Part shown: positions 2 through 64,000 of the stretch, one piece after another
How the letters are laid out: every line of letters starts with the position of its first letter
How positions within the stretch are numbered: position 1 is the stretch's first letter
Source of the DNA: a virus
Lineage: Duplodnaviria > Heunggongvirae > Uroviricota > Caudoviricetes
DNA length: 64,000 nt
IMG/VR virus record: IMGVR_UViG_3300044878_000136
Coordinates: 61,232 to 125,231 of that record
Direction: 5' to 3' (one strand)
Translations under genes and position numbers: made by a program
The notes under the pieces: generated by a model
Seen by the model: the letters and a program-made list of their open reading frames with translations, nothing else
What the model was told of the DNA's origin: nothing
Databases searched by the model: none

Positions 2-1216
2 CCTGTCGGTGGCTGGATGACTGATCAGTGCGTGGCTGACATGATCACCTACCGTGAACGCGGTAACGGCATTATCGTCATCACCGACCACAGTGCTACC
101 AACTCCCAAGCAGCGGACGCGGCAGGGAATACCCGGCCAGGTTTCCACGGTACGGCTCAGAAGCTGGTGCGTAACTTCGGTTCGTACTTCACCGGCAACT
201 TTGACCGTACTCCGGTGAACGTAGGGTTCTTGCGGGCTACCTACGGCGACCATGCGCTGTATAACGGCATGACCAACGCGGAGTCTATCCACGCGGGTTA
301 TTCCGAATCCAAGGTGGTGGTGACCCAGTACCCCGAGTACACCAAGGCTACGGCGCCAGTGGTGAACCTGACGCAGGACGGCAAGTACGTCATCTCGATC
401 CTCGCGATCTTGAAGGACGGCACACCTGAAACTTATCGGTACGTGTTCAACATCGTACTCGGTGAGTTCCTCTGGTGGAAGTCCAGTGTCGATGGCAGTA
501 TCTTGTTGGATACCTACTCCACCAAGAAATCGGTCTCCGACTTCCTGCCTTATATCTCACCGCAGGACAACGGTACGCTATTCGGCAGCATCTTGCGCAA
601 CGGGAAGAAGATCGGCAGCTTCGTTCATGACGAATCAACAGGCACCGTTTATAAGTACCTGGCTGGCACGAACATCTACCCGGTGAACGACAAGGACACT
701 TTCACCATCGCGGTGGAAGAACCCTTCAGTTACAACAAGACGCTGACGGTGAAGCGTTACCAGCCGCCAGTGGCGCAGATCATCGATCACGCTCACACGC
801 TGAAGTTGATGGGTGTTGACGACTACGTGGGGATTCCTCCTCGCAAGCTGGTCAACAAGATCATCAAGGACATCGCTCAGTACTACCCGCAATACCCGCT
901 GCTACTTAACGGGGATGCGGCACGGGACGTGGCGATCATCCGTCGGTTCACCAGTGAGTTCGTAGGTGATGTCACCACAGCCTACATCTATGCAACCAGT
1001 GACGATGCCAAGGAAGCGCGTCGAATCCTCACCACCCAACCGAACTGCATCATCGATGCGGAGAAGAACCAGGTGTGGGAATACCAGTACCCTGAGTGGT
1101 TGCTCATCGATGGCTTGAAGGCTCAGGACTTCCTGGGTGCTCCACGCCGTGTGACGAGTATCTCCAACGGGGATAAGTTCCTGTTGCGAGCTGATGGCAC
1201 CATCGTCCAAATCTGA
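2..1216 (+). CDS. Virion structural / tail-associated protein, 5'-partial (frame open to window edge)
   Basis: Frame is open upstream of the ATG at 17 (cct gtc ggt ggc tgg atg). Phage-like codon usage; lies ahead of tail-fibre-type genes. Confidence 0.5.
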   Translation, partial: PVGGWMTDQCVADMITYRERGNGIIVITDHSATNSQAADAAGNTRPGFHGTAQKLVRNFGSYFTGNFDRTPVNVGFLRATYGDHALYNGMTNAESIHAGYSESKVVVTQYPEYTKATAPVVNLTQDGKYVISILAILKDGTPETYRYVFNIVLGEFLWWKSSVDGSILLDTYSTKKSVSDFLPYISPQDNGTLFGSILRNGKKIGSFVHDESTGTVYKYLAGTNIYPVNDKDTFTIAVEEPFSYNKTLTVKRYQPPVAQIIDHAHTLKLMGVDDYVGIPPRKLVNKIIKDIAQYYPQYPLLLNGDAARDVAIIRRFTSEFVGDVTTAYIYATSDDAKEARRILTTQPNCIIDAEKNQVWEYQYPEWLLIDGLKAQDFLGAPRRVTSISNGDKFLLRADGTIVQI

Positions 1217-1219
1217 ATG

Positions 1220-1250
1220 ATCGCGGCTTCGGCCGCGGTTTCACTCTTTT
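1220..1250 (+). terminator. Intrinsic terminator with C(UUCG)G tetraloop
   Basis: atcgcggc-ttcg-gccgcggt followed by ttcactctttt, 3 nt after the stop at 1216. Confidence 0.75.
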
Positions 1251-1264
1251 GCGAGTAAGTACTC

Positions 1265-1906
1265 ATGGCTGACACTATCTTTAAGTACCCGTTCGATCCA
1301 CTGGGTACCAGCATTACCAACCGGGTATCCGAAGAAGCGCACACGATCGGCGCATTGCGCGGTCGTATGTTTGCTGCGGACTACGGTCCGTTCTTCGGTT
1401 CCAGTGTTCTCGTCAAGGACGCGGTGACGGGCAAAGAGCTGAAGCCTGTCGAAGACTACGTGCTGGTGCACTACTACCGCGAAGCAGGCATGGCCACCGG
1501 TCAAGCCGTCTACGCTGCCGTGCGCATCATCAACCCTGACGTTAGCACCTCGATCCTCTTCACCGCTCAGATGGTCGGGGGTGAGTTCTCCTACTCCACC
1601 TTCGCTATCAAACAGGCGATCGAAGACCTGATCAACGACGACCGTCCTGTGTACTGGGGCGATCTGGTTGGTATTCCATCGCAGTTCGTTCCAGCCATGC
1701 ACTTGCACAGCGCTTACGATCTGTACGGTATGAAGTACCTGATCGAATCGAACTACGACATCGCTGCGGCTATCCGTGAAGGTGACGTGAATTCCCGGCA
1801 ACTGCTGCTGGATCAGGTCCGCCAGAAGTTCGGCGATTTGGACAACTTCATGTTGGCCTTGGCGACCAACTATCGCACCGCCGCCGCTGAACTGGCATTG
1901 ATTTAA
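1265..1906 (+). CDS. phiKZ-like virion structural protein (YPFDP-G...N...E-H N-terminus)
   Basis: 213-aa ORF; the N-terminal motif is recalled from jumbo-phage tail/baseplate proteins; context fits. Confidence 0.6.
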   Translation: MADTIFKYPFDPLGTSITNRVSEEAHTIGALRGRMFAADYGPFFGSSVLVKDAVTGKELKPVEDYVLVHYYREAGMATGQAVYAAVRIINPDVSTSILFTAQMVGGEFSYSTFAIKQAIEDLINDDRPVYWGDLVGIPSQFVPAMHLHSAYDLYGMKYLIESNYDIAAAIREGDVNSRQLLLDQVRQKFGDLDNFMLALATNYRTAAAELALI

Positions 1907-1922
1907 ACATGCGATCCTTGGA

Positions 1923-4865
1923 GTGACGAGAATGTCCCTGACGGAAGAGATGAAAGATCTTTTGGATGAGATGCAGGCAGTCAATGCTGAAATCATCGAA
2001 AAGACCGGGGGTCCAGCGGGTAGCGATACAATCGTTACGCACGCCCCCAATGCTGACAAGCTGGATGGGATGACGGCAGGCCGTGTCTCGGATCTACTCC
2101 GGGAGCGCATTCGAGCCCACATCGAGACACTGGGTCAGAACGCTCATGGTCTTCTGCCTAGTGATCTCAACACCTACAGCACCCTCGAGTTCAACAGCAA
2201 GCTCGATAGCTACCTCGACATCAACGGCAATGGTCCGCTGTCGTTCTACGGTGACCGGGAGTATCTCCCACCTACCGTGACCGGTTCGTTTGAATCTGGG
2301 GTGAACTGGGCACCATGGGGTTTCGTCGGCATGTTCCTTGAGGACAACGGCACCCTCATGATGCTCCGTACCGGTACGGACGGCGTGAAGGCAGGTGTGT
2401 ACTACTCGTACCTGCGTAACGCCTTGAACACCGGGCTGCTGTCTGACATCGTGATGACCAACGCCCGGTACAACCCGGCTTACTTCCCGAGCGGTTCGTT
2501 TGCTCGTGCGGTACTGTACGCCAACCAAGACCTAATCATCGGCATCTTGGCGGACAAGAACACCCAGGCCATCACGGGTTACTTCGTCTCCTTGACGAAC
2601 AACACCTACGACCAGTCCAAACACACTGGTATCGTGATCCCACCAGGTACCATCATCAACCCGTACATCACGGGCGAGTGCGTGCTGCGTGGTATTCCGA
2701 TCGGGTTCCTGAAAGACGGCGCGGTTTATCTGCTGGTCAACAAAGACACGGCGGACAACCAGTCGTCGGGCTGGAAGGTCTATTCGATCCCTAAGCAGAA
2801 CATGATCGAATCCAACTACGTTGCTCCTACACCGATCACCGGCTGGACGATCAACCGCGGTGTGGCAGGTGTGGTGTCTCGCACCGACTTGGATTGGGCG
2901 GACAATCAGTACGACCTGGTTACGCGCACCGATGCGCGGCAGACGGTGGCTGTGGCTGATCGGTATAACGCGCCGTATTACACCCAGACGTTGGACAACG
3001 GCCAGATGTGGATGTGTCATCCGCACTACATGTGGTTCCGTGACTCTGCCTTGCTGGTTCAAGATCTCCAGTGGGCAAGTCACTTTACGTTCCAGTTCGA
3101 TCCGGTGAGTAAGGTTGTTGATGTTTCCCAATACTTCAACGACAAGCCGACTGTGACGTTTGACTCGCCAACCGTGTGGTCACCTAAGGGTGGTGCGGCA
3201 AACGCCTGGTGGAACAACGCGAACAGCCACATCAACCAATACAGCGGCCAGCTCTCGGTACGTACGTTCATCACGCCTAACAACGTCGTGTTCTACTACC
3301 GGACGAGCGTTCTCTACACCAGCCGTTCGTTGGGCCGTGCTGAGTATTCGGCAGATCAGTCGTTCAAGGACATCCTCCGCGGCGCTGGGGTGAAGTCATC
3401 GAACCTCATCGCCAGCTTCGAGGGTCGTTACGCCAGTCCATGTTCGTTCCTGTTTGCCACGGTCTCCAACTTCGGGGATCTGGTACTCACCGGTCAGAAC
3501 ACCGGGTGGAACAAAGCCAACCAGGTTCAGCGGATGTTCTTCCGCGCTGGTACGGACAGTACGTTCACCTACCAGTACGGCAGTCTCCAGGGTTACAACT
3601 TCCTGGGTAACCCTCCGACGTCTGATCGGAGCTGGCTGGAAGACTATCCGGGGACCAACAAGACCGACCTGTATAACTGCGTGAACGAAACGGATGCGTC
3701 TGGTTGGTTGGTACACCAGGCTCGTTACGACAACTACGTAGAGCCAACCCGTCGTAGTGGATCGGCCAACATCAACACCGCCATGGTGGGGAGTGGTACG
3801 GTCAGTATCTCCCAAGCAGCGTTCGCTAGTTTGGAAGGTCCTCTACGTGCTGACTTGGCGGCTAACGTCGGTGGTGGTTACGGTAACGGGGTTGATCTCT
3901 GGTACGAGGTTATCGTCCCTCAGCGCTATTCTGACATGCCTGCATTTGTTTACGGACATTACGTAGGCGCTGATCGGAAGACACGGTTCTTCGTCTACTC
4001 GGTCAACGTCAACGCGCGCGCTGCTGTGACGTCGGCGACTCTGGTTCCGGGTAGTCGTCAGATCATCGAGTCACCGCACGGTAACGGTAACTCGCTGGGG
4101 ATTAGCTTCTCGGTACGTGACTCGGGTCAGGTTGCCATTCGTCGGGCCAACGGCGGGTTCTACGTGGGACTCACCACGCAGGGTCGCTACACGTTCATCG
4201 GTAACAGTGTGGCCAGTGCCATGTTGATGCAATGGACGCCAGGCGGTGGTTGGACGTTCCCATTGGGGTACGACTACGACCAGCAGACGATTTCGATCAC
4301 CGGTTTCCTCAACATGTCGCACGGTCTGTACGTGACGTTCACGACGGAGAACCACCGTGGGTCGATCGACTGTGGTACGAAGTTGCTGGGTCAGTTGATC
4401 AGTAACGGCGGTGCGCCGGAACTCCCGACGCTGAACCATTATCGTGCCCGGATGACGGATCCAAACACTACGCGGATCTTCCTGTCGCAACAAACCGTGA
4501 CAGCGTGGACGGTGTACTTCGCTGACCCGACGCCTGTGATGATCGAAGGTCTCTACTACGAGCTGGGTGTTTACGCACACTACCTCAACGCAGCGACCGA
4601 TGCGAACAAGACGTTCTATGCGTGGGCAGTTCGTTCGAATGGTGCGGTGTCCTACCACATCACCACTAACCCGGCGATCCCGACTGGGTTCGAGGCGCAA
4701 CTCTACCTCGGCTTCTTCTCTACCAACTCGGCAGGTCTTGCTGTGGTGGCGATTGAGAAGCGTGTGGCTGTGGGCGGTACGTTGATCTCGACCACCTCTC
4801 GCGGTAAATCCATCCCAGTGACTGCCGGTGTACCAAACACCCCAGGTCGCCTCAGCTGGAAATAA
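1923..4865 (+). CDS. Tail fibre-like protein (980 aa; ATG at 1932 is an alternative start)
   Basis: N-terminal AH...NAHG motif; G/S/T/N/W/Y-rich beta-type body; C-terminal module shared with the next two ORFs. Confidence 0.65.
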   Translation: MTRMSLTEEMKDLLDEMQAVNAEIIEKTGGPAGSDTIVTHAPNADKLDGMTAGRVSDLLRERIRAHIETLGQNAHGLLPSDLNTYSTLEFNSKLDSYLDINGNGPLSFYGDREYLPPTVTGSFESGVNWAPWGFVGMFLEDNGTLMMLRTGTDGVKAGVYYSYLRNALNTGLLSDIVMTNARYNPAYFPSGSFARAVLYANQDLIIGILADKNTQAITGYFVSLTNNTYDQSKHTGIVIPPGTIINPYITGECVLRGIPIGFLKDGAVYLLVNKDTADNQSSGWKVYSIPKQNMIESNYVAPTPITGWTINRGVAGVVSRTDLDWADNQYDLVTRTDARQTVAVADRYNAPYYTQTLDNGQMWMCHPHYMWFRDSALLVQDLQWASHFTFQFDPVSKVVDVSQYFNDKPTVTFDSPTVWSPKGGAANAWWNNANSHINQYSGQLSVRTFITPNNVVFYYRTSVLYTSRSLGRAEYSADQSFKDILRGAGVKSSNLIASFEGRYASPCSFLFATVSNFGDLVLTGQNTGWNKANQVQRMFFRAGTDSTFTYQYGSLQGYNFLGNPPTSDRSWLEDYPGTNKTDLYNCVNETDASGWLVHQARYDNYVEPTRRSGSANINTAMVGSGTVSISQAAFASLEGPLRADLAANVGGGYGNGVDLWYEVIVPQRYSDMPAFVYGHYVGADRKTRFFVYSVNVNARAAVTSATLVPGSRQIIESPHGNGNSLGISFSVRDSGQVAIRRANGGFYVGLTTQGRYTFIGNSVASAMLMQWTPGGGWTFPLGYDYDQQTISITGFLNMSHGLYVTFTTENHRGSIDCGTKLLGQLISNGGAPELPTLNHYRARMTDPNTTRIFLSQQTVTAWTVYFADPTPVMIEGLYYELGVYAHYLNAATDANKTFYAWAVRSNGAVSYHITTNPAIPTGFEAQLYLGFFSTNSAGLAVVAIEKRVAVGGTLISTTSRGKSIPVTAGVPNTPGRLSWK

Positions 4866-48744: not shown

Positions 48745-48753
48745 GGATGACTC

Positions 48754-49577: not shown

Positions 49578-49585
49578 GGTGATGT

Positions 49586-50569
49586 ATGGAAATTCTGGCC
49601 CTATTGGGGATGCCGAAGGTCGTGGCGGACGACCAATCTGAAGAACGTCATTCAAGACTGTTCTATGTGAGTTCGGTCACCAACACCATCAACGCCGATG
49701 TCAACCAGCCCGGTGCGCATTTCAACGCCCAGGCGACCATGGACAGCACCGGACGGTTTCAGTACGCCTTCGGGGTGACCATACCTGCTGGCGCATTCAC
49801 GCTGAATGGTGGAACGTACGATCGGTCGGTATTGGGTTTCCGTGTCGTGACGAAGGGTGGGTATAGAGGCGAACTCACAACGAATCCGTTCATGTACATC
49901 TACGCCACCGTCAAGCCAGGAACGGGTAACAACCAAATCGGTGGACCGGTTCCATACGCTCCACATCTGTCGGGCGATGAGGGTCAGTACTTCGAGATCG
50001 TTACCGACTGGAAGACCGGCACCTTCTGGATTTACATCGATGGTGCGTTTGTCACGAAGTGGGCGTTTGCCGCACCAACGGGTATCGACAACGCTTACCC
50101 GATACTGATTCGCCTCTACGCAGACCAAAACAACATCCCTTATGCGCAAGGGAATATCGTGGGTCATGTCCGCGATTTGTACATGGGTAGTTTGGGCGTG
50201 GGTGAGGTGTTCGAGCCGCTGGGCGATCTGAAGGTTGACCAACTCCTAACTACCGCCCACACCCTGTTCTCCAACAACACGCTGACCACCCTGAACAACT
50301 GGGGCGCTGCCTTCAGTACGACTCTCGATCAGGCGGGGACGAAGCTCTACACCCAGAACTACGCAGACCCAACGCCGCTGAAGACCGCGGACTACGTTTA
50401 CGGGCAGTGTGCGCAAGTGACGGGCCTCGGCTATATCGAAGTTTCTTCTAATGGCGCGAAGATCGCAGGGGATACCAAGCCTACACTCCTGCCAACCACA
50501 CGGGTCCTGAAGATCAATCCTGCCGACGTCGGTAACGATCTGACCGTCTCGTTCAAAATCGATCCGTAA
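49586..50569 (+). CDS. ConA/LamG-like putative lectin virion protein
   Basis: EIVTDWKTGTFWIYIDG...VRDLYMG...LG motif shared with paralogues. Confidence 0.55.
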   Translation: MEILALLGMPKVVADDQSEERHSRLFYVSSVTNTINADVNQPGAHFNAQATMDSTGRFQYAFGVTIPAGAFTLNGGTYDRSVLGFRVVTKGGYRGELTTNPFMYIYATVKPGTGNNQIGGPVPYAPHLSGDEGQYFEIVTDWKTGTFWIYIDGAFVTKWAFAAPTGIDNAYPILIRLYADQNNIPYAQGNIVGHVRDLYMGSLGVGEVFEPLGDLKVDQLLTTAHTLFSNNTLTTLNNWGAAFSTTLDQAGTKLYTQNYADPTPLKTADYVYGQCAQVTGLGYIEVSSNGAKIAGDTKPTLLPTTRVLKINPADVGNDLTVSFKIDP

Positions 50570-50582
50570 GTAGGAACCGCAC

Positions 50583-51737: not shown

Positions 51738-51751
51738 GGAAACTCTGAGTT

Positions 51752-52870
51752 ATGGCCACGTCCTCCATTACTGGTGGCGTTTCCCTCTTCTACGGCAACA
51801 AGGCGGTCCAACAGACCGCCCTGTACTCGGTAGGGGCGAAAGCGCTATTCACCAAGACCCCTTACGGTCAACCGAACTTCACGCTCGCGCCTATCGATGA
51901 CATCTATCAGTCGATCGCAGCAAGAATCGGTCGCCCTTTCACCAAGAAGAACTTCAACGTCGGTCCTCCTGTCGCCATTGGCGGTGAGTCGATCGAGGGT
52001 GAGTACAACACCACGGTCAACATCAGTGCGGTGACCACTCAGCTGTACTCTGGCAACATCGACTTGGCCTATCCTCGGTATCCGGCAGACATCCTTACAC
52101 TGGATGTCAACCTGGACTTGCTGCGGTACAGTCCGGCGCGTACCACCATCTCGCAGGTGATCACTGAGTTCAACCGTGTGTTCGGTACTCAGCTGCCATT
52201 GGCTGACTTCGAAGACGGACCGATTGAGCAGACTGGCGAAACCTTCCTGACCGCTAAGGCTTCCTCGTACTGGTTCATCCCAGGTACCAAGGTTTCCATC
52301 GGTGTGGTGGCTCTGTCTGACCGGGACTTGGAGATCGCAGGTCTTAACTGGCCGGCTACCAAGTCGCTCGCAGCGCATAAAGCGTACTTCGTCAAGGATA
52401 CATTCCGCGTCGAGTACAACAAGCTGTTTGGTGACACCTGGACGGCCCTACAGTCCACGATCCCAGACGTGTCGAGCGTATCCACAGGCTTCGGTACAAA
52501 ACGTGACCGTCAAGTCACCATGACCTTTAACAAGGGTCAGGGCGATGTCCTCAAGACGATCTACTTCTACCGTTTGGACTTGAGTCAGCTGACGGCTCAG
52601 TTCATGACCACGTCGACGTACGATCTGTTCGCGGGTAAGATCCTCGACACAGCGAACGTAGCACGACTGACCGCCATGGCGGGTATCCCGTTCGATGCCA
52701 ACGAGTTGATCAATACCGACATCGTGGAGACCAACGAACGTGGTTCGATCTTCATCGACATCACGGCGGCGGAGAACTCCAAGTTCTTCAAGGGTACGAC
52801 TCGGGTAGAGATCACTCGCGCTCCCCACATCGCCGACACGATCGCCCCCAACACCGAATTTCTTTTCTAG
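51752..52870 (+). CDS. Stalk-family protein with two tandem domains (paralogue of 53882)
   Basis: AYFVKDTFR.E[YF]NKLFGDT shared with 53882. Confidence 0.7.
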   Translation: MATSSITGGVSLFYGNKAVQQTALYSVGAKALFTKTPYGQPNFTLAPIDDIYQSIAARIGRPFTKKNFNVGPPVAIGGESIEGEYNTTVNISAVTTQLYSGNIDLAYPRYPADILTLDVNLDLLRYSPARTTISQVITEFNRVFGTQLPLADFEDGPIEQTGETFLTAKASSYWFIPGTKVSIGVVALSDRDLEIAGLNWPATKSLAAHKAYFVKDTFRVEYNKLFGDTWTALQSTIPDVSSVSTGFGTKRDRQVTMTFNKGQGDVLKTIYFYRLDLSQLTAQFMTTSTYDLFAGKILDTANVARLTAMAGIPFDANELINTDIVETNERGSIFIDITAAENSKFFKGTTRVEITRAPHIADTIAPNTEFLF

Positions 52871-52879
52871 GTGATATAG

Positions 52880-53869
52880 ATGAAACTATATTCTGCTGTC
52901 GGGATTGAGGATTTCTCGAACCCACTTACCGTGCAAGGCGTTGGTGATGCGACCATTCGCCGACTCGGCTTACTCGATTGGTTCAACATGTCTGCACACG
53001 GGTCCTACATTCCGATCCCCACACCGGGTAAAGGTCTGAACCTGTCGGCGTACGCCAACCAGACTGGATTCCCACTCAAGGACATCATCGCCGAATACCC
53101 AACCGGCGACTGCTGGATCGCGTTTGGGGTAATGATCGATCCGATCACCATCATCCAGCAGGGCGGTTCGTTCTTCTCGGTCAGTACGTCCAACACTACC
53201 GTATATGTTCCCATGTCCGCCCTGAGTCGATACGACATCCTCCAGACATGGGGGCAGGGTAAGCGCTGCTGTGTGGAATTGGTCTGGAAGCCATTGACCG
53301 GTGTGTACAAGGTCTTCGTTAACGGTATCCAGCGTGCGTCTGGGACAGCATCGGCGTGGAACACCGGCGCCTACCCGATGAGTACCCACATCGTTAACTT
53401 CAACGCTTACGCAGTGAACGACTCGACAACGCGGATGTATGTCACCGATGCCTACATCGGGGTGGTAGACAGTATCGACGATCGACTCGGTAACTTCAAG
53501 ATCCAGAAACTGGCGCAGAAGACCTCTACCCTGAATGCTGACGGCATGACTCCAGGCGGTCCAGTACAGTTGGCCACTGGCGACCATACCGTCGAGTTCG
53601 ACACCGCGCCATTGGCAGGCTCCATAGTGTGCGGGGTGGCCGAGACTGTCCGTGCGTTGAGTCAGGGTCCTACGGCGTCAGTTACTACGAAGCGTACCAT
53701 CAACGGCAGTGAGACAGCTGCACGCAAGGCTGGCCCTATTCCAGTCACGCCCCCGGCAATTGTAATCGATGAGTTCGCCGCCCCACGAGTCATGGCCCCG
53801 CCGACACCTTACGTCCTCGGTACGCCGTTGACCGAGTGCAAACTCACCCTCTCCATCGTGAACAACTAA
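52880..53869 (+). CDS. ConA/LamG-like putative lectin virion protein
   Basis: ELVWKPLTGVYKVFVNG...VTDAYIG...RLGNFKI. Confidence 0.55.
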   Translation: MKLYSAVGIEDFSNPLTVQGVGDATIRRLGLLDWFNMSAHGSYIPIPTPGKGLNLSAYANQTGFPLKDIIAEYPTGDCWIAFGVMIDPITIIQQGGSFFSVSTSNTTVYVPMSALSRYDILQTWGQGKRCCVELVWKPLTGVYKVFVNGIQRASGTASAWNTGAYPMSTHIVNFNAYAVNDSTTRMYVTDAYIGVVDSIDDRLGNFKIQKLAQKTSTLNADGMTPGGPVQLATGDHTVEFDTAPLAGSIVCGVAETVRALSQGPTASVTTKRTINGSETAARKAGPIPVTPPAIVIDEFAAPRVMAPPTPYVLGTPLTECKLTLSIVNN

Positions 53870-53881
53870 GAGAGCTCCTTC

Positions 53882-54988
53882 ATGGCTGAGATGAATTTTG
53901 ACGGCGTAGTAATGAACGCCGTCGTCTCGGTGCCAGCGAACATGAACTTTGATGGAGTCACGGTTAACGCCGTGACTCGTCTCGCAGGCCCCACGCAATT
54001 TAAACGCACTCCCCGTGTCGAGCTGCTCGAAGCCCTCACCGCCACCACCGGCGTGGCGTTGGATCCGACCAAGTACGACATCGGCGAGGTGGTCAACGAC
54101 ACGCCAGTCACTGCCCGAGCAACCATCGATCTGATCGCACTGGAAGCCTCTGGTAAGCGACGCACCACTCCAGTGGTCTACCGTCGTCGCAACATCTACG
54201 AGTTGATCAACACCCTCGACTTGGACTTGTTGAAACCGACGACCGCGTTCCCGATCACTAACCTGACTCAGTTGGTGGATGCGTTCAACCGCACCTACGG
54301 ACTGACGTTGGCGAACAAGGACTTCAAACCCCTGATCATCAATCAGGGTGGTCCAACCACGATCATGACGGCGTTGGCCTCGTGGTATTTCGAGCCTAAC
54401 ACTCAGGTGGCTATCGGCCGTCTCGATGGTACGGATCGTGAGTTCGAACTACTGCTCAAAGGTTTGACCTGGCCAACCAAGACACTGCCTGCCCAACAGG
54501 CGTATTTCGTCAAGGATACGTTCCGGGCAGAGTTCAACAAACTCTTTGGCGATACGTTCACCGCACCGCAGACTCAGATCCCCGATGTCTCTGCGCCGAG
54601 CACTGGTCCAACGACCAACCGTGAACGTGAGGTCGCGCTGGTCTTCACCGTCGGTCAGACAGTCACCAATAAAAAGGTGTACTTCTTCCGTCTGTCGTTG
54701 ACTGACCTACCTGGTCAACTGATCGCTTCTTCTGTATGGGATCTGCAAGCTGGGAAGTTCCTGGATGCGGGTAACGTGACGGAACTGGCGACCATGGCTG
54801 GCCTGCCGCTGGACGCGTTAGAGTTCGTCAACACTGACTTGGTCGAGACAACCCCTCAAGGTCCCATCAACGTCACCTTCAAGGCTACTGATAACAGTAA
54901 GTTCTTTAAAGGTGAGGTGACCATCTCTGTCCCACGAGCGCCTTGGGTGACTACCATCGTCCCTAACGGCACTACCTTCTCTCTGTAG
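53882..54988 (+). CDS. Stalk-family protein with two tandem domains and 2 N-terminal repeats
   Basis: MNFDGV..NAV x2; VYRRRNI; YFFRLSL. Confidence 0.7.
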   Translation: MAEMNFDGVVMNAVVSVPANMNFDGVTVNAVTRLAGPTQFKRTPRVELLEALTATTGVALDPTKYDIGEVVNDTPVTARATIDLIALEASGKRRTTPVVYRRRNIYELINTLDLDLLKPTTAFPITNLTQLVDAFNRTYGLTLANKDFKPLIINQGGPTTIMTALASWYFEPNTQVAIGRLDGTDREFELLLKGLTWPTKTLPAQQAYFVKDTFRAEFNKLFGDTFTAPQTQIPDVSAPSTGPTTNREREVALVFTVGQTVTNKKVYFFRLSLTDLPGQLIASSVWDLQAGKFLDAGNVTELATMAGLPLDALEFVNTDLVETTPQGPINVTFKATDNSKFFKGEVTISVPRAPWVTTIVPNGTTFSL

Positions 54989-54995
54989 GTGATCC

Positions 54996-55940
54996 ATGAG
55001 ACTGATTTACGCGGTCACTGCGAGTGATCTTCAAAACAGCGGACATCCTTACGGCAGCATCTGGCAGGCCTGGAGACGGATCGGCAAACTGCCGCTTTTC
55101 ATCTACCTGTCTAACAACGGGACTGGAACCGGCAGTGCTGGCGGCCTTGACATCTACGGCTACTACACCTACATATCGCTCCCAGTCGGTCGGGCGATGG
55201 CGTACATGAAGCCGGAAGAGGTCATCACGGGCGGGTATTATCTGGTTGGTCAGAACGGCGGTGCCCTCGCTAACAATGCGAACTCCGCCCTTCGACTAGC
55301 CTCGTCCGTCGGTGAGGAAAGCCTCTTCACGCACGCCGACATCTATGCGTTTACAGGTGGCGGATCGGCGTTTATCGAGTACGCCGTATCGTACGACCTG
55401 AAAACGGCCACGCTGTACGTCAACGGCCGATTCGTTAAGACTGTCCAGACGACGCTGAACCACGACCGGAACTCGCTGGTCCTTTATATCTGGACCGCGC
55501 CCAGTGTCGCGACATGGTACACCTTGAGGGATATCTACGCCGCCTTCTACGATCCGTCTAAAGAGAAGCCGTACTTGGGTCGCTGGGCGTGCGAGGCACT
55601 CTCGGTTACCGCGAGCGACTTCCCGAACAGCTTGGTCGAGGACACGACGACGGACACCGTTGGTCTTACGCCGAAGACGATCGAGTTCACCTACAGCGGA
55701 ACCCGCACACTCAACAGCGTGGCCGTGACGAGTAACTGCGTATCGTCGTTTAGTGAGGCCCTAGACACTACCTTCAACAGCGGCGTTAATAGCGGCACCA
55801 TCACCATCACCCCCTCGACACCGGCGGAGGCCACCGAATCGTGGATCACCAAAGGTGCGGGTCCAGCCACCTCGTTGGGAAGCGTCAATTTTGACAACGT
55901 CTCGAAGAAAGTGACCGCTTCGCTCAAACTGAAGCCATAG
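54996..55940 (+). CDS. ConA/LamG-like putative lectin virion protein
   Basis: EYAVSYDLKTATLYVNG...LRDIYAA...YLGRW.C. Confidence 0.55.
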   Translation: MRLIYAVTASDLQNSGHPYGSIWQAWRRIGKLPLFIYLSNNGTGTGSAGGLDIYGYYTYISLPVGRAMAYMKPEEVITGGYYLVGQNGGALANNANSALRLASSVGEESLFTHADIYAFTGGGSAFIEYAVSYDLKTATLYVNGRFVKTVQTTLNHDRNSLVLYIWTAPSVATWYTLRDIYAAFYDPSKEKPYLGRWACEALSVTASDFPNSLVEDTTTDTVGLTPKTIEFTYSGTRTLNSVAVTSNCVSSFSEALDTTFNSGVNSGTITITPSTPAEATESWITKGAGPATSLGSVNFDNVSKKVTASLKLKP

Positions 55941-55947
55941 GTAGATC

Positions 55948-56901
55948 ATGAGATTACTATTCGCTTATACCGGTAAGGGGTTGATCAACTCCGCGTCCGG
56001 CATCCCCAACGGCGTCATCAACGTTTGGCAACAGGCTGGTAATACTCCCTTCGTCTATCATCAGTCGACCAGTTATGCGATCCAGCAGGCAGCCGGTGAT
56101 GAACTCAGCGCCGCCATCGGCTACAGCCACATCTTCGCTCGCAGCTTCGACCTTCTCGGTCGTCTGTCGGCGGATGAGGTACTGACGTGGGGGTTCCGCT
56201 ACCGTGGTACGTATGACACGGTCAACGCCTCCCCACTCGCCGGCTTGCTGGTCAATGATCCGCGGCAAGGCATCTACCCGGTACTGTGGTCTGATGGTGG
56301 GCAGAACGGCGCCGCGATCTTGGACCTGTTCATTGAGGTGACGGCCGATCCGGTCGCTCGCACTGTCACTGGGTACATCAACGGCCGGAAGACCCGCACC
56401 CTGCCGATCCCCGATACCGTGCTGTGGAACGAGGTCAACCTCGGTTACCTGCTGTACCATCCAAGCTCATCCGCTACCAAAACGTTCAACCATTTCTACT
56501 CGGCTGTCTTCAAGAAATCCGAAGGGGTGACTCACCTGTCGGCGTGGGAATGTGAAGAATGCGTGGAACTCAGCAACGAGATGCGGGATGGTGGTGGGGC
56601 ACTGACCAACAATACCGTCAACGAAGCCTGGAAGTCGGTGGTGTATAAAGCACCTACCGTACCGCTCGATGAGGTCGCTGCCGATCTCACTGGGATTAAC
56701 CCACAGCTGTACTCCACTCTGATGACTGAGTTGTCTGACGGCACTACGACCAAGGCCTATTCGCCAACATCGATTGGCGCTTTGATCAACAACACCGAGT
56801 TCTCTAACAACACCTCCGGTAAGCCGCTGGCTTGGCTGAGTCCCTCCAAACTCGCCACTCAGTACACACTGAAGCTCAAGGCATTGCCGCCTCAGGAGTA
56901 A
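55948..56901 (+). CDS. ConA/LamG-like putative lectin virion protein
   Basis: IEVTADPVARTVTGYING...HFYSA...HLSAWEC. Confidence 0.55.
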   Translation: MRLLFAYTGKGLINSASGIPNGVINVWQQAGNTPFVYHQSTSYAIQQAAGDELSAAIGYSHIFARSFDLLGRLSADEVLTWGFRYRGTYDTVNASPLAGLLVNDPRQGIYPVLWSDGGQNGAAILDLFIEVTADPVARTVTGYINGRKTRTLPIPDTVLWNEVNLGYLLYHPSSSATKTFNHFYSAVFKKSEGVTHLSAWECEECVELSNEMRDGGGALTNNTVNEAWKSVVYKAPTVPLDEVAADLTGINPQLYSTLMTELSDGTTTKAYSPTSIGALINNTEFSNNTSGKPLAWLSPSKLATQYTLKLKALPPQE

Positions 56902-56904
56902 CCC

Positions 56905-57936
56905 ATGGCTGAAGTAAAGATTGACGAGCTACTCGTCACGGCCGTCCAATATTTGGACCCAGAAGTTAAGGTCGATGAGCTGCTCGTCTCTGCCGTTCAG
57001 TACGTCGACCCTACACTGGCTGTCGACACCCTCTACGCTCGCGGTATCGCCAAACTGCCAGCGAGCGTGGTGGTGAGTGGTACCCACGTCGGCGGTCTAC
57101 GGCGTAAGATGTCCTCTACCCGATTCAAACTCGGTTATAAGGAAGAGGTTCTGGCTGCGCTGGCGGATGGTCTCGGGATTTCTCTACCCGTGGCTAACTA
57201 CGACCTCACATTGGGCGCTGGCGTGTCCGGTCAGCCGGAATACGTGAACCTGCGTCTGACTGCCAAGAAACCTTCTGGGTATCGTCGCTACAGCGATGTG
57301 ACGTATCGTCGTGTGAAAGCTAACGATCTCTTGGCGGCTATCAGTCTCGAGACACTCAAGCCTAACGAACTCTACCCGCTCAATACCACGGCGCAGATCG
57401 TCGCGCGGATGAACACCCTGTTCGGCACGAAGTTCACCGACATTGACTTTGTCGAGGAAGCCACTCCGACAGGCGCTGATCGCATCCTGACAGCCAAGCC
57501 TGAATCGTTCTACTTCCAGGCAGGGTCCACGGTCAACGTGGGGCGACTCGACATGAACGAGCGGACCACCGAGATCGCCGGTTTGGCGTGGGGTGAGGTA
57601 GAATGGCAGGCGTTTGCGAGTCATGCTACCGACTATACCCAGTTCGGTTCTGCGGCGCTGGCGGCCATCACCGGTAGCGTCTTGTCGTCAGCACACGTCA
57701 CGGCGCTGATACCTGTCCTGAACCAATACATACCCAACCACGGCTACGCTAACAGCGTATACACCACCGCCGGTGTCCGTGGACTTCAGGGTGCTCCGTT
57801 CCAACAGCTGACGCTCCCAGCGGCTACCAACCTACCGGTGGACAACTCGGGCTACTATAACCGCGCGCTTGTCATCGACCTTGCTCTAGCTCCGGTTTCG
57901 CTGTTCCGCTACTTGGTCCTCCATTACAACGTCTGA
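56905..57936 (+). CDS. Stalk-family two-domain protein with 3 N-terminal repeats
   Basis: EVK[IV]DELLV[TS]AVQY[LV]DP x2 plus a degenerate third; VTYRRV; ends LVLHYN. Confidence 0.7.
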   Translation: MAEVKIDELLVTAVQYLDPEVKVDELLVSAVQYVDPTLAVDTLYARGIAKLPASVVVSGTHVGGLRRKMSSTRFKLGYKEEVLAALADGLGISLPVANYDLTLGAGVSGQPEYVNLRLTAKKPSGYRRYSDVTYRRVKANDLLAAISLETLKPNELYPLNTTAQIVARMNTLFGTKFTDIDFVEEATPTGADRILTAKPESFYFQAGSTVNVGRLDMNERTTEIAGLAWGEVEWQAFASHATDYTQFGSAALAAITGSVLSSAHVTALIPVLNQYIPNHGYANSVYTTAGVRGLQGAPFQQLTLPAATNLPVDNSGYYNRALVIDLALAPVSLFRYLVLHYNV

Positions 57937-57944
57937 GGTGTATC

Positions 57945-58859
57945 TTGGAACTCATTCACGCTTATTCGCTAGAACGCATCGCGCAGATGTCGGAAGCTAA
58001 AGTAGCACCGGCCTCTCGCGTGATCAAGGGTACTGCGCTCCGTTGCGATGCCCTCACCCTGTTGGCCCTCAGTTGCGACGCCGGTGGCATGCACTGCTCG
58101 GCTAACGCCAACACCGTGTACGTGGACTTCAGCAACGCGGTGGACGCTAGTCGTGTCGATCCGTACTGGATCACAGTGGGTTGGCTCATCGTACCGGATA
58201 CCGTAGCTTCAGGTACATGGACCTCCGGCATCTTCGGTATGGGCTCTGTGGGCGTCGTCGCTCCGTCGAGTGTCTTCCCCGTCACCAACGGACAGCAAGC
58301 TTATCTCGAGTTTGCCCTGAATCCGATCACAGGTGTGTTGAAGGTTTACGTTAACGGTACCGTCATCTTCACCACGACCTACAACACGGCTGAGCGGTTG
58401 GTTCGCATCATGTACGGTCCTGGGTTTGGCTACCTCTACACCATCAAGGACATCTACGTGGCCCGCTTCGAGAATACCGAAGAACCACGTCTACGTCGTT
58501 GGAAGTCGGTCACCCTGCCAGCCGTCACCAACAACATCGGTTCTAACGCGGCCTTGCAGACGGTGGACGGTACACAGGTGTCGATCGGCGCGTCCGAGGT
58601 TCAGGCCACGTTCACCATCCCTCCCAAAACGCTTGGTATCTGCGCACAGTCGAGCATGCTGGCACCAGATAACGCCAGTGACCTAGTTACCACGTTGACG
58701 GATGGCACGATCAACAAGTCGCTGCGCACCTCCGACATGAACAACCAGTTGGTCGTAGACCTGCCGCGGAAAGGCCATTCGGTCCACGCCGGTAACATCA
58801 TCCCAGCTGCCAACGCCACGACCCTGACCCTAGGTGTCAAAGCGGTTACTCGTTCATAA
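57945..58859 (+). CDS. ConA/LamG-like putative lectin virion protein (TTG start)
   Basis: LEFALNPITGVLKVYVNG...IKDIYVA...RLRRW; SD gaggtg. Confidence 0.55.
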   Translation: MELIHAYSLERIAQMSEAKVAPASRVIKGTALRCDALTLLALSCDAGGMHCSANANTVYVDFSNAVDASRVDPYWITVGWLIVPDTVASGTWTSGIFGMGSVGVVAPSSVFPVTNGQQAYLEFALNPITGVLKVYVNGTVIFTTTYNTAERLVRIMYGPGFGYLYTIKDIYVARFENTEEPRLRRWKSVTLPAVTNNIGSNAALQTVDGTQVSIGASEVQATFTIPPKTLGICAQSSMLAPDNASDLVTTLTDGTINKSLRTSDMNNQLVVDLPRKGHSVHAGNIIPAANATTLTLGVKAVTRS

Positions 58860-58869
58860 GGAGTGACCG

Positions 58870-59367
58870 ATGTCTAAGCAGAACTTTTTCACCGATGGTA
58901 CCCTCATCGATAAGTTGGGTGTGCTCCTCGAACGGACGCTGGTACAGACCGACTGCGTAGTAGCGGCAACCACTACGTCCAACGTTGGCACGGCGTCTAA
59001 CCGCGATGTGGCGTTGAACATCACCATCCCTAAGGTGGGTGGTGGTACTGAGGTCAAGGCGGCTCGCTACTACCAATTGGATCTGGCGGGGATTGCTAAC
59101 CTCCAGTTGCCCAAGCGATTGTGTAATGAAGACACGACCATTTACGACCTCCTTCCGACCATCAAGCGCATCACCGGCATTCCGTTCACCACGGATGACT
59201 TGGTAGATGCTCCAGTGGTCGTCACAGGCGCCGTGACGGAGTTTACGCTGCCGTTGGTAGCCAAGGTAGGGTCTAAGTGGTTCAAGGGCCGCTACGACCT
59301 CCCAGTGCTGCGTAAGCCGTTGTTGTCCACGGCGACACCGTACGGTCTGCACATGGGTCCTATCTAA
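58870..59367 (+). CDS. Stalk-family single-domain protein
   Basis: RYYQLDL; AKVGSKWFKG. Confidence 0.7.
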   Translation: MSKQNFFTDGTLIDKLGVLLERTLVQTDCVVAATTTSNVGTASNRDVALNITIPKVGGGTEVKAARYYQLDLAGIANLQLPKRLCNEDTTIYDLLPTIKRITGIPFTTDDLVDAPVVVTGAVTEFTLPLVAKVGSKWFKGRYDLPVLRKPLLSTATPYGLHMGPI

Positions 59368-59375
59368 CCAACGAG

Positions 59376-59405
59376 TATACTGGGGGACTGAGTCCCCCAC
59401 GTATT
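59376..59405 (+). terminator. Hairpin terminator
   Basis: tgggggac-tga-gtccccca followed by cgtattta. Confidence 0.55.
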
Positions 59406-59456
59406 TACGTATAAGGTGGGAGATCTTATGACGACTACAAACCTAGAGATTCTTTT

Positions 59457-60071
59457 ATGGCAGATCCAAGCACCAATCCATCTGCATCACTAAGTTCTGT
59501 TCGGGTCCAGGTGATCCAACAACTTGCTGGCGATGTCAACATCGTCAAGAACAAAACGGGTAAACAGCTGTTCGATACGCTGCGGGCGGTCTATCTCCCG
59601 ATCAGTACTCTTGAGTTGTCGCGTGCGACGGTATCTGGTCCAATCCAGGTGACGGGCAACTTGACGAAGGTCACGGTTACGCCGGGTCAACACAGTTCCT
59701 ACCGCCTGCCGATCGATCTGACCTACGTGCGGTACTCCATCAACGAACTGGACAACATGACAGTTCCTGGTGGTGGGTTCGCGTCGGTAGCAGCGTTCCT
59801 GACCTACGTGCGTGGGTTGAGCCTCCAGATCCTCGACGAGGACATCGACCTCGTTAAGAGCGTCCGTCGCAGTGATGGTACTGTCAGTATCTATCCATCG
59901 AAGGTCAGTTGGTTGTTCTCGCCAGATGGATCGTACGACAGCTCGACTGTGCCACGAATCGAGACCGTTCTTCCTAACCTGGTTACTACTGACTTTGACC
60001 ATACGCCACAGCTCCACTTGGCGCTGGTTAACGGTAACCTGACTGGCTTCGATCCTGAAGGAGGTAGCTGA
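59457..60071 (+). CDS. Stalk-family protein ending in two LxGF-like repeats
   Basis: LTYVRYSI; ...LVTTDFD...NLTGFDPEG. Confidence 0.7.
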   Translation: MADPSTNPSASLSSVRVQVIQQLAGDVNIVKNKTGKQLFDTLRAVYLPISTLELSRATVSGPIQVTGNLTKVTVTPGQHSSYRLPIDLTYVRYSINELDNMTVPGGGFASVAAFLTYVRGLSLQILDEDIDLVKSVRRSDGTVSIYPSKVSWLFSPDGSYDSSTVPRIETVLPNLVTTDFDHTPQLHLALVNGNLTGFDPEGGS

Positions 60072-61123
60072 TGTCGATCGTATTCGCTGAAGGTCTTGAC
60101 CGTCAGGCAGACGGTAGGACGATCTCCAACAACGCAGGACTGACGGGTAAGGCCGTAGACATCGTCTGCGTTAACCTCAGTAACCAGCCGCCGGTGAAGG
60201 TTGTGGCGTTCAACAACCGTAATTGGCTGACGGGGATTTCAACCACCGCCAGTAACCAAGTTTCCAGTGTCTCCAACAGCTACTTAGATCTAAAGCGCTT
60301 GATCACGGCGATCGACGATACACGGCGATCAGCACCCGGCCTGCCAGAATCTCCACTCGCTAAGATCAGCGTGTCGTGGAAACTCGGGTGGGCATCGCAG
60401 AACATCGACTCCACCAACGGTCAGTACCCGGCCTCCATCGGTACGGTCAACATGACGTGGGTGGCTCCGGCCAGCGGTCCGGTAAGGACACGAGGTTACG
60501 TCAATTGCATGATGGTGTATGATCGTGCCACTGGGGGTACCGAGTTCTTTGTTGACGGCGTATTGACCAACAGCCAATACACCGGCCGATTTGAGTCCAT
60601 GCGGATCAACCTACTCGGGATGCGGTTGACAGGACTCACCGCGGCGACCAGCTACGTTACCGATATCGTGGTGGTCTATGACGATGGCATCCATCCAGCC
60701 AAGGTTCCGATTGAAGTAGTGGTGCGGGATTTAGCACTGGACAAGGTAACGCCAGCTCATCCTGATGCGGTTATCGTCGGCGGTATTGACGTCACCACAG
60801 CTGAGGTATTGTCTGGTGTGGTTGGGACTACCTTGGTCGGTGATGGCTGCAACGAAGCGTACAAGCCGAAGGCTGCTCAAGCAAAACTAGGTACTGGTGT
60901 CATCATCGGTGTAGCGGTTGATGGGCGACGCAATCCTGGGACTCCAATCCCAGCTGACGTCGAAACCAAGATCACCACACCAGGCGGCGCTACTACCTTG
61001 CTGGAGCGTCCGACGACGAACGCCATCTCACTACAACAGACTATCCGCAGTCTACCCAAGCCGGCTACGGTGAAGGTGATTACTGATGGTGCCGTTGTAA
61101 AGCTCACGGCAAAATCACGTTAA
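60071..61123 (+). CDS. ConA/LamG-like putative lectin virion protein
   Basis: MMVYDRATGGTEFFVDG...VTDIVVVYDDG; TGATG overlap. Confidence 0.55.
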   Translation: MSIVFAEGLDRQADGRTISNNAGLTGKAVDIVCVNLSNQPPVKVVAFNNRNWLTGISTTASNQVSSVSNSYLDLKRLITAIDDTRRSAPGLPESPLAKISVSWKLGWASQNIDSTNGQYPASIGTVNMTWVAPASGPVRTRGYVNCMMVYDRATGGTEFFVDGVLTNSQYTGRFESMRINLLGMRLTGLTAATSYVTDIVVVYDDGIHPAKVPIEVVVRDLALDKVTPAHPDAVIVGGIDVTTAEVLSGVVGTTLVGDGCNEAYKPKAAQAKLGTGVIIGVAVDGRRNPGTPIPADVETKITTPGGATTLLERPTTNAISLQQTIRSLPKPATVKVITDGAVVKLTAKSR

Positions 61124-62223: not shown

Positions 62224-62664
62224 TTAGAACACCAGCTTGAAGCTGTAGTCGCCATGGTAGATCAACGAATCAGGTTTGGCAGACACAATCAACAGGCCGG
62301 GACGAACACCGACTACCGGCATCTGTGCGGCCACGAAACGCCATTCAGCAGCTTGTAGCGGGAACACAGCCATCGCAGCGTCGAAGATCTGTTGGTCAGT
62401 CATGCCTGCGGTGACAGTGACTTGGATAGACTCGCTACTACCCAACTGGTTCACTGCGGAGCTGCGGTTGTAGTACAGGTAGTCAGAGCCACTGAATACC
62501 GGAGTCGCACCTGGGGTGAGTTGTACGCGGGCATTGGTCGGTTGTTCGATCAACTCTTCCACCGTGCCGAAGGTCACGTTAACCGCTGTCAGGTTAGTCC
62601 CGTTCAGGGAGTTCAGCAGGTCGAGGATGTTCTGTTGAGCGGTCTTTGCGTTATTAAGATTCAT
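62224..62664 (-). CDS. Stalk-family single-domain protein
   Basis: DLLNSLNG, LYYNRSS, AKPDSLIYHG; SD aggaga. Confidence 0.7.
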   Translation of the reverse strand: MNLNNAKTAQQNILDLLNSLNGTNLTAVNVTFGTVEELIEQPTNARVQLTPGATPVFSGSDYLYYNRSSAVNQLGSSESIQVTVTAGMTDQQIFDAAMAVFPLQAAEWRFVAAQMPVVGVRPGLLIVSAKPDSLIYHGDYSFKLVF

Positions 62665-62704
62665 AGTTCTCTCCTAAATGGAATCATACTATTTAAACGG
62701 TTGC

Positions 62705-62852
62705 AGCATAAAGAAGAGAAAAATGATCACCAACGGCGGGAGTGGGGATGGGCGCCGTTGGTGATCGAGTGCAGTGCTAAGAGGCGATCAGGACCTTGAA
62801 GGGGAGGAGTCCTGACCGCCAATGAGCCAAGGTTGATGGGAGACCTTGATTC
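62705..62852 (-). ncRNA. Candidate ~145-nt three-hairpin sRNA with C-rich loops
   Basis: Stems 62827-49, 62783-820 and 62725-66; promoter-like motif about 24 nt upstream; U-tract plus TATGC end. Confidence 0.6.
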
Positions 62853-62863
62853 AAATGATAGCG

Positions 62864-62893
62864 GCGTTCTGTAAAATTTTACGCTAACAGAAA
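62864..62893 (-). promoter_or_regulatory. Putative middle-type promoter (AAATTTTAC, palindromic core)
   Basis: gcgttctgtaaaattttacgctaacagaaa vs gcgttgtaatattttacgttaacaaaa at 13754. Confidence 0.5.
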
Positions 62894-62898
62894 AGTTG

Positions 62899-63343
62899 CA
62901 GCATAAACACGCCGAGTTTGACCAACCCGTTTACCAGGCCAGTCAGTGACTCGACGTGTCTAATGATCCAAGGCCTACTCAGAAGTCATTGAATGCCTCG
63001 CCGGAGTACCGGGTCTGGGTCGCTGAAGTCAAAAGTATTTATGGCAGAGGATTAATCGCGTAACCCGCCGGTGCCAACTATAACGGTGCCTGGCAAGAGG
63101 CCCACAGGGAGTCGGAGTTCAAGTTGTGTGGACGCGTACGTCCTGATTGTACATATAATGTCAATCCCCAGAAGCTATCCGTGTCCTCACGCTAGATAGG
63201 TTCTGAGGCTTAGCACTATTGGCTACAGCTACACCAGCCACCCGCATGGGCTGATGTCAGTGCTAGGGAGGACATCCCAGCGTTGGTACCCCGGTCGACG
63301 GAGCGAGTGCCGACCATTGGGGTAGAAACTGCACTGTTGTTAC
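62899..63343 (-). ncRNA. Candidate ~445-nt structured non-coding RNA
   Basis: No ORF of 60 aa or more; at least 7 hairpins; G-U wobbles favour the minus strand; TATG at 63346-43; terminal hairpin + TATGC. Confidence 0.55.
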
Positions 63344-63400
63344 ATACTATACTACCAGCTGCAAACGATATGAATGAAGTACCTTATTTGGGAGGTCTTA

Positions 63401-64000
63401 ATGGCCAATATCGACATCCGGCTTTTACAGCTTATTAACAAGAAGGCGTTGAATCGTATCGATGAACAATACATCGAAATCTCTCCGCCGGAAGATATCC
63501 CGCCACGTACCGAAGTGAATGGACTGGTATCCAATACTCGGGTCACCATCACTGCACGACCTGAGGGGAAGTACAAGAACTCCAAGACGGTACGGTATCG
63601 TCGTAACAGCATCCAGGATGAGTTCGATGGTTACGACATCGAGTCTCCTGCGGCATCCAGACCAGTGTGGAATCACATCATCTTCAGTGAGATGATTGGG
63701 TTGGTGACTGATGTACTGCAACTGTTCTGCATCGATCCAAACGATGTCGACATGGAATCATTTGGCCACATGTTCCCGGCGGACAGTCGGGGTAGACGTG
63801 AACTGAATCCTTCCTACTTGGTTGATGGTTCACTCACCGTTACATTGCGACCTACTCAAAACAACTACTATTACAACGGTCCAGCGACTCTCACGTTCGG
63901 CGCTCACACAACTGTCGATCGTAGGCTACGACTGGAAGAAGACTTGGCTGTGCGTTATGAAGAAGATGGGGGCACACGTCTCCAAGATGGAGTGTTCAAG
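63401..64000 (+). CDS. Stalk-family virion protein, 3'-partial (not in ORF track)
   Basis: SD GGAGGT; MANIDIRLLQLINKK...NTRVTITARPEGKYKNSKTVRYRR; open to the window end. Confidence 0.7.
   Translation, partial: MANIDIRLLQLINKKALNRIDEQYIEISPPEDIPPRTEVNGLVSNTRVTITARPEGKYKNSKTVRYRRNSIQDEFDGYDIESPAASRPVWNHIIFSEMIGLVTDVLQLFCIDPNDVDMESFGHMFPADSRGRRELNPSYLVDGSLTVTLRPTQNNYYYNGPATLTFGAHTTVDRRLRLEEDLAVRYEEDGGTRLQDGVFK

Follow-up and report, generated by a model that had tools for sequence, protein, structure and literature searches.

What does a jumbo phage keep in 735 nt of DNA where two genes diverge and every open reading frame (ORF) is short? This gap lies in a 64,000-nt stretch of phage DNA (hereafter the window) that corresponds to bases 61232-125231 of the 263,994-bp IMG/VR virus record IMGVR_UViG_3300044878_000136 (54% G+C). 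The ~264-kb genome encodes a phiKZ-type major capsid protein (phrog_3231; 36% identical to its counterpart in Pseudomonas phage pPa_SNUABM_DT01, the closest named phage) and a chimallin (PF25677 above cut-off; phrog_4795 at 1e-40), and we therefore regard its owner as a nucleus-forming jumbo phage. One side of the gap is bounded by a minus-strand gene (62664..62224, 146 aa) and the other by a plus-strand gene that starts at 63401 (200 aa); both products carry a DUF7941 domain. Minus-strand positions 63343-62900 of this gap are a strand-specific structured non-coding RNA gene of ~440 nt. Probably, this gene stands alone and represents a new family of large, structured non-coding RNAs (ncRNAs), found in a single clade of uncultured, chimallin-encoding jumbo phages.

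An earlier, sequence-only reading of the window had proposed an ORF-free structured RNA on the minus strand, and this proposal held. The ORFs in the gap reach at most 51 aa and are not conserved; a small-ORF coding reading was dropped because the ATG of its candidate, a 33-aa ORF, is lost in two homologous loci, L015 and L016. Folding of the minus strand yields -172.8 kcal/mol (z = -4.0 to -4.2, with none of 100 shuffles folding as well), compared with a z of only -1.15 for the plus strand. RNAalifold, given 14 sequences, returned a consensus of 111 pairs, 39 of them with compensatory two-sided changes, and in our own helix table every helix is paired at 95-100%; a scan for single covarying pairs was too noisy and was left unused. 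The molecule is divided as follows.

62900..63343, minus strand: the whole structured RNA, ~440 nt, with homologues over this range in 15 loci by nhmmer and blastn
63156..63343, minus strand: 5' domain with helices P1, P2/P2a, P3, P4 and P6/P6a/P6b, the most conserved part
63116..63155, minus strand: variable insert between the domains, holding a GGACG-UACG-CGUCC hairpin at 63143-63130
62966..63115, minus strand: 3' domain with helices P7/P7a, P8 and P9-P9d, 95-100% paired
62904..62962, minus strand: terminal hairpin P10/P10a/P10b of 14+11 = 25 bp, taken as a probable terminator or 3' stabiliser

The 5' domain carries much of this evidence. Its helix P1 (CAGUGC/GCACUG) encloses the hairpins P2/P2a and P3 and is followed by P4 and then by the three-part arm P6/P6a/P6b. 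The 57 modelled pairs of the domain are paired in 98.4% of cells, as opposed to 49% or less in controls with slid partners, and two-sided changes occur at 10 pairs, compared with 3.6 +/- 1.3 in shuffles (0/500). Helices of the 3' domain, where we placed P9 at 63052-63049 with 62969-62966, have one to four compensatory pairs each, but zero in P8 and P9. The terminal hairpin is strongly strand-dependent (-36.9 kcal/mol on the minus strand vs -19.6 on the plus strand), and six of the seven pairs of P10b are compensatory. Its six G-U pairs (of 25) and its preference for the minus strand had been recognised in the sequence-only reading, whose size and limits for it we correct to 14+11 bp and 62962-62904.

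The other hairpins in that reading fared variously. The hairpin uacccc/ggucggc...gucgacc/ggggua is supported by covariation, as is ccucagaa...uucugggg, with compensatory changes in five of its eight pairs. The inner part of a longer proposed stem, acaucagcc/ggcuggugu, survives; its outer part, uagcacu/agugcua, competes with the better-supported P1. The hairpin gauug/caauc likewise competes with the better-supported P6, and it cannot form in L013 and L014. The hairpin ggacg-UACG-cgucc is upheld by two compensatory pairs in the 12 close sequences and is absent from the four divergent ones, L013-L016, in which the insert is deleted or replaced. A closing helix that would join the 5' end to the TATGCTG of the 3' end (CAGU/GCUG) was dropped in favour of P1; it is broken in L013, and TATGCTG is a generic box.

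Tertiary contacts were sought by a search for non-nested helices, which returned two loop-loop pairings within the 5' domain.

63268..63274, minus strand: 5' arm of the first contact (PK1), UGUCCUC, in the P3 loop; it includes a CUCC and pairs with 63188-63182
63182..63188, minus strand: 3' arm of PK1, GAGGACA, in the P6b loop
63303..63308, minus strand: candidate arm of the second contact (PK2), ACUCGC, in the P2a loop; it pairs with 63245-63240
63240..63245, minus strand: candidate arm of PK2, GCGGGU, in the P4 loop

PK1, a 7-bp kissing loop, is paired in every sequence (100% of cells). It has changed on both sides at two pairs in L016 (ACCCUC with GAGGGU), and it is kept in L013, L069 and L016, where a rival local stem, CGUG/CACG, is broken. 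PK2 (ACUCGC/GCGGGU) is paired in 99% of cells, with only wobble, and thus one-sided, changes; a second loop-loop contact at this site is suggested by these figures, not proven.

The RNA occurs in 20 contigs of uncultured phages, always inside the gap between diverging DUF7941 genes. The 20 loci come from the contigs of 13 relatives of the 200-aa flanking protein in a large protein collection, together with two IMG/VR genomes and two metagenome contigs that were located by an invariant DNA pattern. A covariance model of the 5' domain, CM R1, scores 144-234 bits in the 20 loci. Identity of this domain to the window is 74-97%, as against 63-84% (nucleotide) and 54-88% (protein) for the flanking gene. 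Beyond these loci, blastn and tblastn searches of 50,697 phage records gave no match for the region or for the 200-aa flanking protein; an exact-pattern scan of IMG/VR recovered only two relatives that were already known, while the metagenome scan added two; and a wider protein-profile scan of IMG/VR added no loci. An invariant 18-mer had 31 matches in 185,579 bacterial and archaeal species genomes (one per species), approximately the number expected by chance, none of which extended past ~35 nt in nhmmer. CM R1 had no match in phages pPa_SNUABM_DT01, Xoo-sp14, LucasX, FLC9 or phiKZ, and no gap like this one is present at the DUF7941 loci of phiKZ, FLC9 and SPN3US. That the RNA is a new family of large structured RNA, confined in these searches to one clade of uncultured Chimalliviridae-type phages, is the most secure of our conclusions.

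Does this RNA have a transcription unit of its own? Conservation begins at a promoter-like box, which stands back to back with a second one on the other strand.

63340..63351, minus strand: start box TATAGTATGTAA, with a phiKZ-type TATG (63346-63343); the G at 63343 is the probable +1
63369..63372, plus strand: back-to-back TATG (CGATATGAA); by the phiKZ rule, transcription of the 200-aa DUF7941 gene at 63401 likely starts in this box

The sequence-only reading had placed a TATG start at about 63343, and the motif is indeed invariant in the 16 homologues of our start-box alignment. The longer TATA[G/C]TATGTAA is likewise unchanged in 16/16, the 10 nt upstream of it vary, and the 5' edge of conservation thus coincides with this box, behind a variable spacer. 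In phiKZ, late transcripts made by the non-virion RNA polymerase (nvRNAP) start at the G of TATG, and middle promoters add AAanTTACc at about -24 (PMC4666361). The region from -20 to -31 of the RNA start is TTCATATCGTTT, without a middle-type AAAATTAC at -24; since the TATG is invariant and this element is missing, the phiKZ rule points to a late-type promoter with +1 at 63343, from which the phage nvRNAP would transcribe the RNA. The agreement with a late nvRNAP unit (TATG, no -24 element) is one of sequence. Like phiKZ late units, the RNA has an invariant TATG at the 5' edge of conservation, lacks AAAATTAC at -24 and lies among virion genes; in contrast to them, its product would be an RNA and not an mRNA, and its extended box is shared only with the middle-type promoter of chimallin.

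This last point bears on timing. The TATAGTATGTAA 12-mer occurs twice in the genome, at the RNA start and upstream of the chimallin gene, and at the same two sites in a 267-kb relative (G001). The second copy (G000:C1:249836, minus strand, or approximately 3326-3337 of L018) has AAAAATTAC at -24 and is thus of the middle type; the chimallin gene itself is at 3032..1053 (minus strand) of L018. The copy is followed by a hairpin-rich leader of ~85 nt, a second promoter-like box (GTAAAAATTCAC...TACATTAT), a 5' untranslated region (UTR) of ~170 nt and chimallin, a layout that is the same in G001 (L063). Because the extended start box is otherwise found only at this middle-type promoter, the timing of the RNA is uncertain, and late expression is plausible but unproven.

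On the other strand, TTCATATCG is a block conserved upstream of the RNA start box; a 28-nt leader, in which GGGAGG occurs, separates this block from the ATG at 63401. The best reading of TTCATATCG is that it is likely the plus-strand TATG of the 200-aa gene. We also considered a sigma-70-type promoter for the RNA (TTCATA-17-TATAGT); it matches the consensus, but such matches are no commoner than in shuffles, and TTCATATCG is better explained by the plus-strand TATG.

The 3' end is marked by a motif that the sequence-only reading had taken as the signature of a pair of RNAs.

62895..62907, minus strand: the 13-mer TTTATGCTGCAAC, one case of a generic punctuation by hairpin + TATGCTG; for the unit that follows, it is a box of late-promoter-like or terminator-associated type

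Two copies of TTTATGCTGCAAC do exist, at 62907 and 62712, and they are the only exact ones in the 264-kb genome. Their interpretation as a signature of two RNAs does not stand, in that a strong hairpin precedes 30 of the 42 TATGCTG sites of the genome, compared with 9.6% of random positions. The combination looks like general punctuation, which may be associated with terminators, act as a late promoter or do both. A GC-rich hairpin directly followed by (T/C)TATGCTG(T/C) is found ~30 times in the genome, in some cases bidirectionally (e.g. at window positions 30729, 25006, 35289 and 7660), and a separate box, ATACATTA, is found at 12 sites, 40-60 nt upstream of gene starts and often after GTAAAA..TTAC; together these look like the terminator and promoter vocabulary of the phage. 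Sequence-conserved terminators have also been described in 201phi2-1 and phiKZ (PMC11512511).

What comes after the terminal hairpin differs between loci. In the window it is a small RNA (sRNA) of ~140 nt (62722-62859, minus strand) with a promoter-like GTAAAATTTTAC at 62882-62871; this sRNA's own AAAATTTTAC box resembles the phiKZ middle-promoter motif. In L010 (664-984, minus strand) and L013 (2200-2520, minus strand), the terminal hairpin and the sRNA are separated by an inserted ORF of 106 aa that has a Shine-Dalgarno sequence of its own, and in L013 a TATGCTG-type box precedes the Shine-Dalgarno sequence and the ORF, so that this box may drive the inserted protein gene. Because separate promoter-like boxes come after the terminal hairpin, the RNA probably ends there, and since the locus is a string of separate units, an independent RNA gene is favoured over a mere leader. 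We consider it likely, from this arrangement of boxes, that the large RNA is its own transcription unit.

The same features bear on the best surviving alternative, in which read-through from 63343 makes the RNA a long structured 5' leader of the minus-strand DUF7941 fibre-subunit operon (products of 146, 168 and 156 aa), where it would act in cis to make the late mRNA more stable or to adjust how this mRNA is translated. RNA and operon share their orientation, most loci have no ORF between the two, and the position beside the DUF7941 genes is constant in all loci; the insertion of the 106-aa ORF after the RNA in L010 and L013, with its own Shine-Dalgarno sequence, means all the same that the RNA is not bound to a particular gene downstream. 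The U run after the terminal hairpin is short, as would suit read-through, yet two TATGCTG boxes and the middle-type AAAATTTTAC box stand between RNA and gene. There is also a precedent in the sRNAs derived from 5' UTRs upstream of tail genes in 201phi2-1 (sRNA005) and in phiKZ (the sRNA upstream of gp182; PMC11512511). However, known leaders need far less than a fold of 440 nt that includes a covarying kissing loop and is better conserved than coding sequence, and we regard a leader as unlikely.

The sequence-only reading itself had joined the large RNA and the sRNA into a two-RNA module; in such a model, the CUCC loops, which resemble anti-Shine-Dalgarno sequences, would bind mRNAs at their ribosome-binding sites and hold down translation late in infection. 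Both RNAs are syntenic in every locus that is long enough to cover them, and it is on this synteny alone that the module rests: no complementary 7-mer is kept across all 11 loci, the test by which we judged pairing between the RNAs, as the output of unrestricted duplex folding was meaningless. The nine copies of CUCC that had been counted are there, and they are mildly enriched (9 vs 4.1 expected in the 640 nt of both RNAs, P ~0.015), against an expectation of 2-3 in the earlier reading. The loops are largely used inside the fold, however: the large RNA has five copies of CUCC, and PK1 contains one, another borders PK2 and others are in stems. An invariant CUCCCU of the large RNA is partly unpaired and would suit a module. 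The sRNA resembles the ar14 ('cuckoo') family of Rfam weakly (36.8 bits, E 4e-5), a score below the gathering score of 58.8 and without counterpart in six relatives. With the shared 13-mer reduced to generic punctuation, and with a near-total invariance of the 5' domain that is unlike seed-type regulators, the module appears distinctly unlikely.

Could a mobile or catalytic RNA have come to rest between these genes, so that the family is its remnant or its free-standing form? A group I-like intron in a degenerate state, or a self-cleaving ribozyme of a new type, would be examples. The size and the multi-helix, pseudoknotted architecture of the RNA are ribozyme-like, an ORF has been inserted right beside it in two lineages, and it is lineage-restricted, being found neither in the five named relatives nor in the DUF7941 loci of FLC9, SPN3US and phiKZ. 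It is not within a gene, however, but between the 5' ends of diverging genes, and no intron or ribozyme model of Rfam matches at E up to 10. The inserted 106-aa ORFs have no Pfam match, including to any endonuclease domain, the RNA sequence is single-copy, with no repeat elsewhere in the genome, and a search of the genome for reverse transcriptase (PF00078), in which the controls responded, found none. These results are likewise at odds with a group I or group II intron, a retron msr/msd or the template of a diversity-generating retroelement, and we see only a slim chance that the RNA is of mobile origin. As for a DNA-level element (replication origin, packaging site or recombination hotspot), a large gene-free stretch between diverging genes with many inverted repeats would be a natural place for one, but the fold is strand-asymmetric, its G-U pairs being A-C mismatches on the other strand, the compensatory changes include series from G-C to G-U to A-U, a loop-loop contact covaries and the alignments hold no iterons or tandem repeats, so that this explanation, with a minimal chance of being right, is very unlikely because of the strand asymmetry and the G-U-dependent covariation.

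We now compare the RNA with those that are known. Rfam 15 (4227 models) was searched at gathering thresholds over the whole window, at E up to 10 over 62600-63450 and at E up to 0.1 in six relatives; the large RNA had no match at gathering thresholds or at E up to 10, where only noise on the opposite strand appeared, and the six relatives gave none. The empty search and the clear compensatory changes in homologues bear out the earlier claim of a novel structured ncRNA. No tRNA or tmRNA hallmarks had been recognised in it, and ARAGORN found neither type of gene in the window or the whole 264-kb genome. We found no description of such an RNA in the literature that we searched. GOLLD and ROOL are the closest in kind, as phage-borne, non-coding and highly conserved RNAs that exceed 400 nt, have numerous helices and form loop contacts over long distances. 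They are often located beside tRNA genes in phages or prophages, whereas the genome studied here has no tRNA genes, and the RNA matches neither model at gathering or E-value thresholds and is limited to one small clade of Chimalliviridae-type phages.

The sRNAs of phiKZ-like phages are similar in other respects: they, too, are ncRNAs of nucleus-forming jumbo phages, located upstream of virion or tail genes and bounded by phage-type promoter and terminator signals. They are shorter than 250 nt and have simple hairpin structures (PMC11512511), unlike the ~440-nt RNA with its tertiary contacts, and those derived from 5' UTRs arise by premature termination in the leader of a tail gene. CM R1 had no match in phiKZ, in a search that did not extend to 201phi2-1, EL and PA3. 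As a homologue, the phiKZ sRNA upstream of gp182 was rejected; the gap between gp181 and gp182 is only 55 nt, and CM R1 does not match there. The ar14/cuckoo sRNAs of Alphaproteobacteria (RF02344; ~120 nt, three hairpins with CCUCCUCCC loops) share C- and U-rich, CUCC-type motifs on hairpins with the RNA, and it is the neighbouring sRNA that matches them weakly and below threshold. The large RNA has no match to this family, and at least one of its CUCC loops pairs within the molecule.

DUF7941, the domain encoded on either side of the RNA, has been described in a preprint as a Chimalliviridae-specific subunit of long baseplate filaments (bioRxiv 10.64898/2026.04.21.720040). Window positions 41497-61123 (plus strand) hold a tandem run of ~18 paralogous genes of ~300 aa, a DUF7941/lectin-type fibre array, after which short DUF7941 paralogues come on the opposite strand. 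Directly downstream of the 200-aa DUF7941 gene, just past the window end, is a protein with collagen-like Gly-X-Y repeats (L001 2855-3736, plus strand); Pfam Collagen matches are found at the equivalent position in L007 and L009. In L009, a helicase gene downstream of the fibre genes (5395-6606, plus strand) has LAGLIDADG_3 and Helicase_C matches, which suggests an intein or a homing-endonuclease insertion.

Several points weigh against the reading that we prefer, a stand-alone RNA gene. The start, the end, the abundance and even the transcription of the RNA are inferred, and the promoter rule is taken from the distant phiKZ, whose major capsid protein is at most 36% identical to that of the phage studied here. 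With no more than a short U run at the terminal hairpin, transcription may read through into the DUF7941 operon. The family is shallow, with 12 or more sequences that are over 89% identical overall; the covariation of PK1 comes from one lineage only (L016), and PK2 has only wobble changes. The invariant, partly unpaired CUCCCU is still free and could pair with GGGAG ribosome-binding sites. Finally, no computed result points to a specific partner or activity.

We nevertheless propose the following scheme. The phage nvRNAP would transcribe the RNA from its own TATG box, with +1 at 63343, and transcription would end at the terminal hairpin. The RNA forms two multi-helix domains with a variable insert between them, at least one covarying 7-bp kissing loop and a 25-bp hairpin at its end. 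Compactly folded, it would then act in trans in the middle to late phase of infection, as the core of a phage ribonucleoprotein or in a ribozyme-like manner. That the RNA is a trans-acting, compact molecule that binds protein or is catalytic, and not a simple antisense or anti-Shine-Dalgarno regulator, is a guess to which we give somewhat less than an even chance. A simple regulator of that kind is disfavoured because the C-rich loops are largely spent on the RNA's own fold, and a ribozyme-like or ribonucleoprotein-like role is favoured over an antisense one because a 190-nt domain is near-invariant and its loops are used for tertiary contacts. Few large RNAs combine high conservation with tertiary contacts, and those that are understood are ribozymes, ribonucleoprotein cores or self-assembling particles. 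The boldest version of our proposal, in which the family is a new class of tertiary-folded large RNA specific to nucleus-forming jumbo phages, serving in the middle to late phase as a ribozyme or as the RNA core of a phage-made ribonucleoprotein, is tentative, and we hold it to be rather doubtful.

Should the RNA turn out to be merely a leader element, its interest would be modest, and the family is small and known from metagenomes only, which limits immediate experiments. The locus also carries a caution, namely that loops of phage RNAs that look like anti-Shine-Dalgarno sequences can be merely structural. Nucleus-forming jumbo phages separate transcription from translation and use RNA polymerases of their own, and to our knowledge hardly anything is known of their ncRNA biology. 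The large RNA provides a concrete subject in this field: ~440 nt, conserved above the adjacent virion genes, and with a covarying kissing loop. If our boldest proposal is true, the new RNA class could serve the handling of mRNA between the phage nucleus and the ribosomes, or the building of the DUF7941 fibre cloud.

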